Of a stretch of DNA of 64,000 nucleotides, positions 50,234 to 50,257 are shown piece after piece; within the stretch, counting starts at the first letter, position 1; each line of letters starts with the position of its first letter. A program made the position numbers and the translations under genes. The notes under the pieces are model-generated. The model was given only the letters and a program-made list of their open reading frames with translations, ran no database searches and was not told the DNA's origin. This DNA comes from Escherichia coli (lineage in GTDB: Bacteria > Pseudomonadota > Gammaproteobacteria > Enterobacterales > Enterobacteriaceae), in assembly GCF_003334405.1 (NCBI RefSeq), contig NZ_QOWM01000002.1; one strand, given 5' to 3'.

Positions 50234-50257
50234 GGTATAACAGGTATAAAGGTATAT
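50234..50257 (+). promoter_or_regulatory. NanR operator: three direct GGTATA repeats in the nanA promoter
   Basis: GGTATAACAGGTATAAAGGTATAT, ~35 bp upstream of the nanA start. Confidence 0.6.

Follow-up and report, generated by a model that had tools for sequence, protein, structure and literature searches.

The closest described system is the nanA operator of Escherichia coli K-12, in which three GGTATA repeats, separated by spacers of 3 and 2 nt, lie between nanR and nanA (PMC3658417, PMC8012715). Without sialic acid, dimers of the repressor NanR load cooperatively on the GGTATA repeats, up to three dimers and about one for each repeat (PMC8012715). The binding has a KD of 20-39 nM and a Hill coefficient of about 2 (PMC8012715, Horne et al. 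2021), and the presence of three dimers on the DNA has been established by analytical ultracentrifugation and cryo-EM (PMC8012715). A single repeat binds NanR poorly, two repeats bind it at 25 nM and form just two complexes, and lengthening of the spacers by 6 nt attenuates binding (PMC8012715). The dimer binds asymmetrically: one of its winged helices sits on GGTATA, the second on neighbouring non-consensus DNA, and the N-terminal extension of the protein is needed for its cooperative multimerisation (PMC8012715). N-acetylneuraminate (Neu5Ac) weakens the affinity of NanR for DNA about 28-fold (PMC8012715), and sialic acid induces nanA up to 1000-fold (PMC3658417). NanR operators are also present upstream of nanCMS and yjhBC (PMC3658417), and genomic SELEX has placed NanR sites at two locations and no others, one upstream of nanATEK and one in the nanC-fimB spacer (PMC4797297). 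The nan operon is activated by CRP (PMC10334811, PMC12562284). In a laboratory-evolution experiment, the loss of 9 bp from the predicted NanR site was accompanied by raised nanK transcription (PMC10519446). Here, we analysed a stretch of 64,000 nucleotides of E. coli DNA, hereafter referred to as the window, and the GGTATA array that it carries. On the best explanation, to which we give a probability of about 0.95, this array is the operator through which NanR controls the E. coli K-12 promoter of nanATEK-nanQ (yhcH). Earlier papers have already described this operator together with its stoichiometry, structure and inducer, and the array itself is nothing new.

The window matches E. coli K-12 MG1655 at 100% identity, including a 1.1-kb stretch around the array. 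MG1655 is the organism of the experiments, and the array is the published operator itself and not a look-alike. In the identical K-12 RefSeq record, the gene order is sspA, sspB, dcuC (minus strand), nanR, nanA, nanT, nanE, nanK and nanQ (yhcH). The gene nanR [49379-50170, + strand] encodes the FadR-subfamily GntR repressor that binds the array; it was identified by annotation, by the NCBIfam model NF003011 (409 bits, curated cut-off 260) and by its product of 263 amino acids, which is equal in sequence to PDB entries 6ON4, 6WFQ and 6WG7. In alignments, the N-terminus of this protein is about 17 residues longer than that of distant homologues. The regulated operon [50292-54854, + strand] comprises, according to the RefSeq annotation, nanA [50292-51185], nanT [51294-52784], nanE [52832-53521], nanK [53518-54393] and nanQ/yhcH [54390-54854], all on the same strand, and NanA scores 571 bits against TIGR00683 (NCBIfam; curated cut-off 382). 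The dcuC-nanR spacer [49018-49378] has no GGTATA hexamer, so an operator of the kind that NanR binds is not obvious there for nanR itself. Far from the array, segment [1-351] holds a 5'-truncated 5S rRNA [1-106], a tRNA [121-193] and a second 5S rRNA [236-351], so that the window opens in the distal part of an rRNA operon whose 5S gene is duplicated. Four tandem matches to Rfam naRNA4 (RF02564, a nucleoid-associated ncRNA of the REP type of repeat) are found at 31397-31739 (+) with a spacing of about 91 nt.

The array occupies 50234-50257 on the + strand and reads GGTATAACAGGTATAAAGGTATAT, in exact agreement with the letters given in the preliminary description. The operator proper [50234-50256] is assigned from the sequence, from the identity to K-12 and from the published (GGTATA)3 site (PMC8012715, PMC3658417). 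Its three hexamers, [50234-50239], [50243-50248] and [50251-50256], are all exact and on the + strand, and they are separated by ACA between repeats 1 and 2 and by AA between repeats 2 and 3. The array begins 64 nt after the nanR stop codon and its third repeat ends 35 nt before the nanA ATG at 50292. The preliminary description had reported three such hexamers about 35 bp upstream of nanA and had offered them as an internal check on the nan operon call; letters, coordinates and distance were all read in the window as claimed, and the check holds, as the flanking genes are nanR and nanA. Lone GGTATA hexamers are ordinary in the window (26 against 16.4 expected). The paired pattern GGTATA-N2-3-GGTATA occurs at the array alone (0.00 in 100 dinucleotide shuffles), as does the triple pattern with up to 3 mismatches allowed, so that by either pattern the 64 kb hold no second array. 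Under a zero-order model, triple arrays are expected by chance 7.6e-6 times per 64 kb and 5.5e-4 times per 4.64 Mb genome; none appeared in 300 first-order Markov simulations. The array was also picked up independently by Tandem Repeats Finder.

A search for further GGTATA arrays, proposed in the preliminary description, led in K-12 to two other promoters. The nanX (yjhB) promoter carries a triple array identical to that of nanA, while the nanC promoter has two exact repeats followed by GGTGCA. These were located in fetched stretches, the nanC promoter at 5900-5999 (-) of L122 and the nanX promoter at 5560-5650 (+) of L123. All three promoters have in common a 27-nt core, TTGATCTGGTATAACAGGTATAAAGGT, a GATC adjoining the array, a CRP-like site upstream and, between that site and the array, about 25 nt of similar sequence. 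The distance from the CRP-like site to the array is 47.5 nt at nanC (by manual reading) and at nanX, and 1 nt less, 46.5 nt, at nanA. Downstream of the arrays, the sequences of nanA, nanC and nanX are unrelated. From sequence comparison, the three sialoregulon promoters look like the product of duplication of a whole promoter module. The gene nanX is situated just downstream of an IS4 element.

To follow the array across Enterobacterales, orthologous loci were picked by a protein search with NanR, independently of the array itself. The footprint set comprised Salmonella, C. rodentium, Edwardsiella, Hafnia, Cronobacter and a JGI contig whose NanR has 75% identity, which together with E. coli make 7 loci; two Enterobacter loci that had been found through the array were left out of it. 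In all six protein-chosen loci, the genes that come after nanR encode a DHDPS-family protein and an MFS transporter. In the seven aligned nanR-nanA spacers, the segment [50231-50248, + strand], which consists of repeats 1 and 2 with the three preceding bases and reads TCTGGTATAACAGGTATA, is invariant in 18 of 18 columns, and its bases are invariant in the K-12 nanC and nanX promoters as well. The mean column identity of the array is 0.963, against 0.62-0.64 in the flanking intergenic DNA. Repeat 3 is exact in four of the seven loci. The other three have degenerate versions, GGTAGG in Salmonella, GGTATG in C. rodentium and GGCATG in Edwardsiella, although their repeats 1 and 2 and the TCT in front of these do not vary. 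Three dimers are therefore not a universal requirement. In having a degenerate repeat 3, the nanA operators of these three species resemble the nanC operator of E. coli.

Within E. coli, 5411 of 5426 complete genomes contain the 1.1-kb stretch that surrounds the array. The 121-bp nanR-nanA spacer has at least 99% identity in 5383 of 5409 genomes, and a 41-mer around the array reaches the same threshold in 5345 of 5402. The 1.1-kb stretch, which includes coding sequence, is unlike the spacer in this respect, with at least 99% identity in just 1825 of 5411 genomes. Copy number can vary. Strain PSJ-07 (NZ_AP027619.1, 497394-497669; array at about 133-164 of this segment) has four repeats, GGTATAACA-GGTATAACA-GGTATAAA-GGTATA, which corresponds to a 9-bp duplication of GGTATAACA. 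Exactly this four-repeat allele is carried by KS-NP019, strain 113 and PSJ-07, which are 3 of about 5400 complete E. coli genomes. The duplication mirrors the 9-bp deletion obtained by laboratory evolution (PMC10519446), which suggests slippage between repeats 1 and 2. Repeat number, changing in 9-bp steps, could tune the tightness of repression.

The second conserved island of the intergenic region is a CRP-like site, AGTGA-AGCAGA-TCGCA [50180-50195, + strand], centred at 50187.5, of which 9 of 16 columns are invariant in the alignment of 7 loci. The observed AGTGA-N6-TCGCA is conserved and resembles TGTGA-N6-TCACA, the motif expected of a class I CRP promoter, and on this resemblance the site is putatively assigned to CRP; its position relative to +1 would follow from the geometry described below. 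The distance from the centre of the site to the first base of repeat 1 is 46.5-47.5 nt in all ten promoters scored by script, and the intervening 38-39 nt have diverged. A repressor site alone does not need a fixed spacing to an activator site, which argues that core promoter elements lie inside the array. We infer a class I CRP promoter with its -10 element and its start within the repeats. With CRP at about -60.5/-61.5, +1 would fall 14-15 nt past the start of repeat 1, which gives a predicted -10 element TATAAC in repeat 1 [50236-50241, + strand] and a predicted transcription start in repeat 2 at about 50248-50249 (+). An alternative register is possible, with TATAAA [50245-50250] as the -10 element, +1 near 50257 and CRP at about -70. 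A consensus scan of 50100-50350 for promoters and terminators, which is a weak test for an activator-dependent promoter, returned no sigma-70-like site and no terminator; the missing consensus match fits an activator-dependent promoter with a poor -35 element. A literature search gave no mapped nanA start, and Cappable-seq data gave no match to the coordinates or to nanA. Kalivoda et al. are said to have mapped the start by S1 in 2003 and to have found a NanR footprint of about 30 bp, reportedly 'covering the promoter region'.

A Dam site, GATC [50229-50232], ends 1 nt upstream of repeat 1. At nanA, nanC and yjhB, the GATC sites that lie no more than 5 bp from a NanR site are differentially methylated (PMC5155068). 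In a dam mutant, nanA expression is unchanged and nanR expression is altered (PMC5155068). The site is missing from three of the six other protein-chosen loci (C. rodentium, Edwardsiella and Hafnia), and this absence suggests that it stands outside the conserved mechanism.

Three other explanations of the array were weighed together with the operator. According to one of them, the block is conserved solely as a core promoter, made of three overlapping TATA-rich hexamers that resemble a -10 element, and no repressor binds it. Every repeat does contain a -10-like TATAxx hexamer, and the fixed spacing between the CRP-like site and the array is what a promoter element would be expected to show. 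However, the GG of the repeats and the spacers vary no more than the TATA part does, oligonucleotides that carry only the repeats bind NanR at nanomolar affinity, SELEX recovers the site, and the 9-bp deletion within it raises expression and does not abolish it. We consider this explanation very improbable. The two roles are compatible, and we propose that the array is both operator and core promoter.

Also unlikely is an arrangement in which NanR on the array acts as a downstream roadblock or hinders promoter clearance, with the promoter wholly upstream of 50234 and the array early in the transcribed region. A -35-like hexamer, TTGCTT [50219-50224], is partly conserved and could belong to such a promoter, but segment [50225-50233] offers no acceptable -10 element and the consensus scan found no promoter there. 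A start upstream of 50234 would moreover bring CRP to about -45 or closer, which is neither a class I nor a class II (-41.5) position. The 2003 footprint, reportedly described as 'covering the promoter region', also speaks against this arrangement. That the array might be a short tandem repeat, made by chance or slippage and with no regulatory role, was considered as well. In its favour, GGTATA microsatellites with units of eight or nine bases are common in other phyla, mostly with no nan genes nearby among the matches listed, and copy number in E. coli varies in 9-bp steps. Against this, the array is expected only 7.6e-6 times per window, it is invariant across Enterobacterales in a spacer that has otherwise diverged, and direct binding of NanR has been published; the statistics, the conservation and the binding data together rule this origin out. 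A site for another regulator was also considered and rejected.

Every defining feature of an E. coli-type NanR operator that can be examined in silico was found here, while the binding itself comes from the literature, and no observation speaks against the operator assignment. A Nan box, at least two GGTATA hexamers on the same strand with 2-3 nt between them, is present with three exact hexamers; it lies next to nanR, in the promoter region of an operon for sialic-acid catabolism; the genome encodes a FadR-subfamily NanR with the N-terminal extension; and the array is kept in orthologous nanR-nanA spacers amid diverged DNA. Repeats 1 and 2 would form the essential conserved core, and repeat 3, which may be dispensable in some species, would add a third dimer. 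Bound NanR would exclude RNA polymerase or block open-complex formation, and would not act as a roadblock further downstream. Binding of Neu5Ac lowers the affinity of NanR for DNA and derepresses the operon, and activation comes from CRP-cAMP. The preliminary description had stated that NanR binds the GGTATA repeats, which the binding data (PMC8012715) and genomic SELEX (PMC4797297) confirm, and that the repeats confer induction by sialic acid. The latter statement stands in part: release of NanR from the repeats induces the operon, CRP is the activator, and the repeats alone are insufficient.

Species-representative genomes were scanned with the pattern GGTATA-N2-3-GGTATA-N2-3-GGTATA, which gave at least 120 stretches; the E. 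coli representative lies outside the listed matches, and the pattern with 3+2 spacing is tighter. The nan proteins were compared with the 120 listed stretches by tblastn. Most of the listed matches are unrelated GGTATA microsatellites with octamer or nonamer units, found in Bacteroidota, Nitrospirae, Pseudoalteromonas and Shewanella, and in several listed stretches a NanR-like regulator is encoded directly beside the array. The two Enterobacter loci (L012 and L106) are orthologous to the E. coli locus. In a Sphingomonadales MAG (L065; array at 1040-1062, -), the adjoining regulator shares 53% identity with NanR and, at 289 bits, passes the cut-off of NF003011. In a Synergistales genome (L024; array at 8520-8541, -), the family that best matches the adjoining regulator is NanR, at 216 bits. 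Two Hungatella MAGs (L049, 6003-6024, +; L057, 6788-6809, -) have the array beside a more distant, divergent GntR/FCD regulator. The Hungatella layout can be described as TTGACC-GGTATACCGGTATACTGG-TATAAT, where the array fills the N18 spacer, and it is located upstream of an operon with cyclase-like, ketopantoate-reductase-like and DHDPS/NAL-like lyase genes. In all four of these stretches, the arrays are triple, have a period of 8 nt and occupy promoter-like positions where they overlap promoter-like hexamers. The regulators of the Sphingomonadales and Synergistales stretches have no N-terminal extension, and the N-terminus of the Hungatella regulator aligns too poorly to judge. The DNA-contacting residues Arg69 and Arg73 are invariant in all homologues aligned. 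From the matches listed, uncorrected for background, it is possible, at somewhat less than even odds, that GGTATA arrays are an old cross-phylum operator architecture of NanR-like FadR-subfamily regulators and not a speciality of E. coli and Shigella.

The remaining matches are of another kind. In the Bacteroidota and Nitrospirae MAGs (L015-L020, L050-L055, L066-L076 and L111-L117), octamer arrays of GGTATAAR or GGTATATT, each unit repeated many times, are dispersed over 6-11 loci per MAG among the matches listed. Within the listed stretches, tblastn detected no NanR or NanA homologue beside these octamers, and they are probably genome-specific families of microsatellites or dispersed repeats. 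Pseudoalteromonas sp. TB64 has a nonamer array of ten copies of GGTATAACT (L002, 9135-9221), in a stretch that has no ORF of 70 amino acids or more, and Shewanella sp. KT0246 has eight copies of the nonamer GGTATAGAA (L011, about 431-490). The unit length of both nonamers equals that of the repeat 1 unit of E. coli, and the two fetched stretches contain no NanR or NanA homologues. Such octamer and nonamer arrays make the bare pattern of three GGTATA hexamers non-specific outside Enterobacterales.

For the window, the array is a sound internal control, which confirms the nan operon call and shows that this DNA is E. coli K-12-like. What is new here is small: TCTGGTATAACAGGTATA as the invariant core obtained from an unbiased phylogenetic footprint, the fixed spacing between the CRP-like site and the array, the degenerate repeat 3 in several genera, a rare natural four-repeat allele, and arrays beside NanR-like regulators in distant phyla. 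These additions matter mainly to researchers who work on NanR and to builders of Neu5Ac biosensors.

Compared with the published (GGTATA)3 operator of K-12 nanA (Kalivoda 2003/2013; Horne 2021, PDB 6WFQ/6WG7), the array is the same DNA and shows no difference. FadR and the typical operators of FadR-subfamily GntR regulators have the protein family and the docking mode of the winged helix in common with NanR (PMC8012715). However, a single FadR dimer occupies one palindrome in symmetric fashion, whereas NanR binds direct repeats asymmetrically and multimerises through its N-terminal extension (PMC8012715). The RpiR-type proteins of Vibrio, Haemophilus, Streptococcus and Clostridium that are also named NanR share with it the name and the control of sialic-acid catabolism, but their protein family is unrelated, their effector is ManNAc-6-P, and their operators are different and lack GGTATA arrays.
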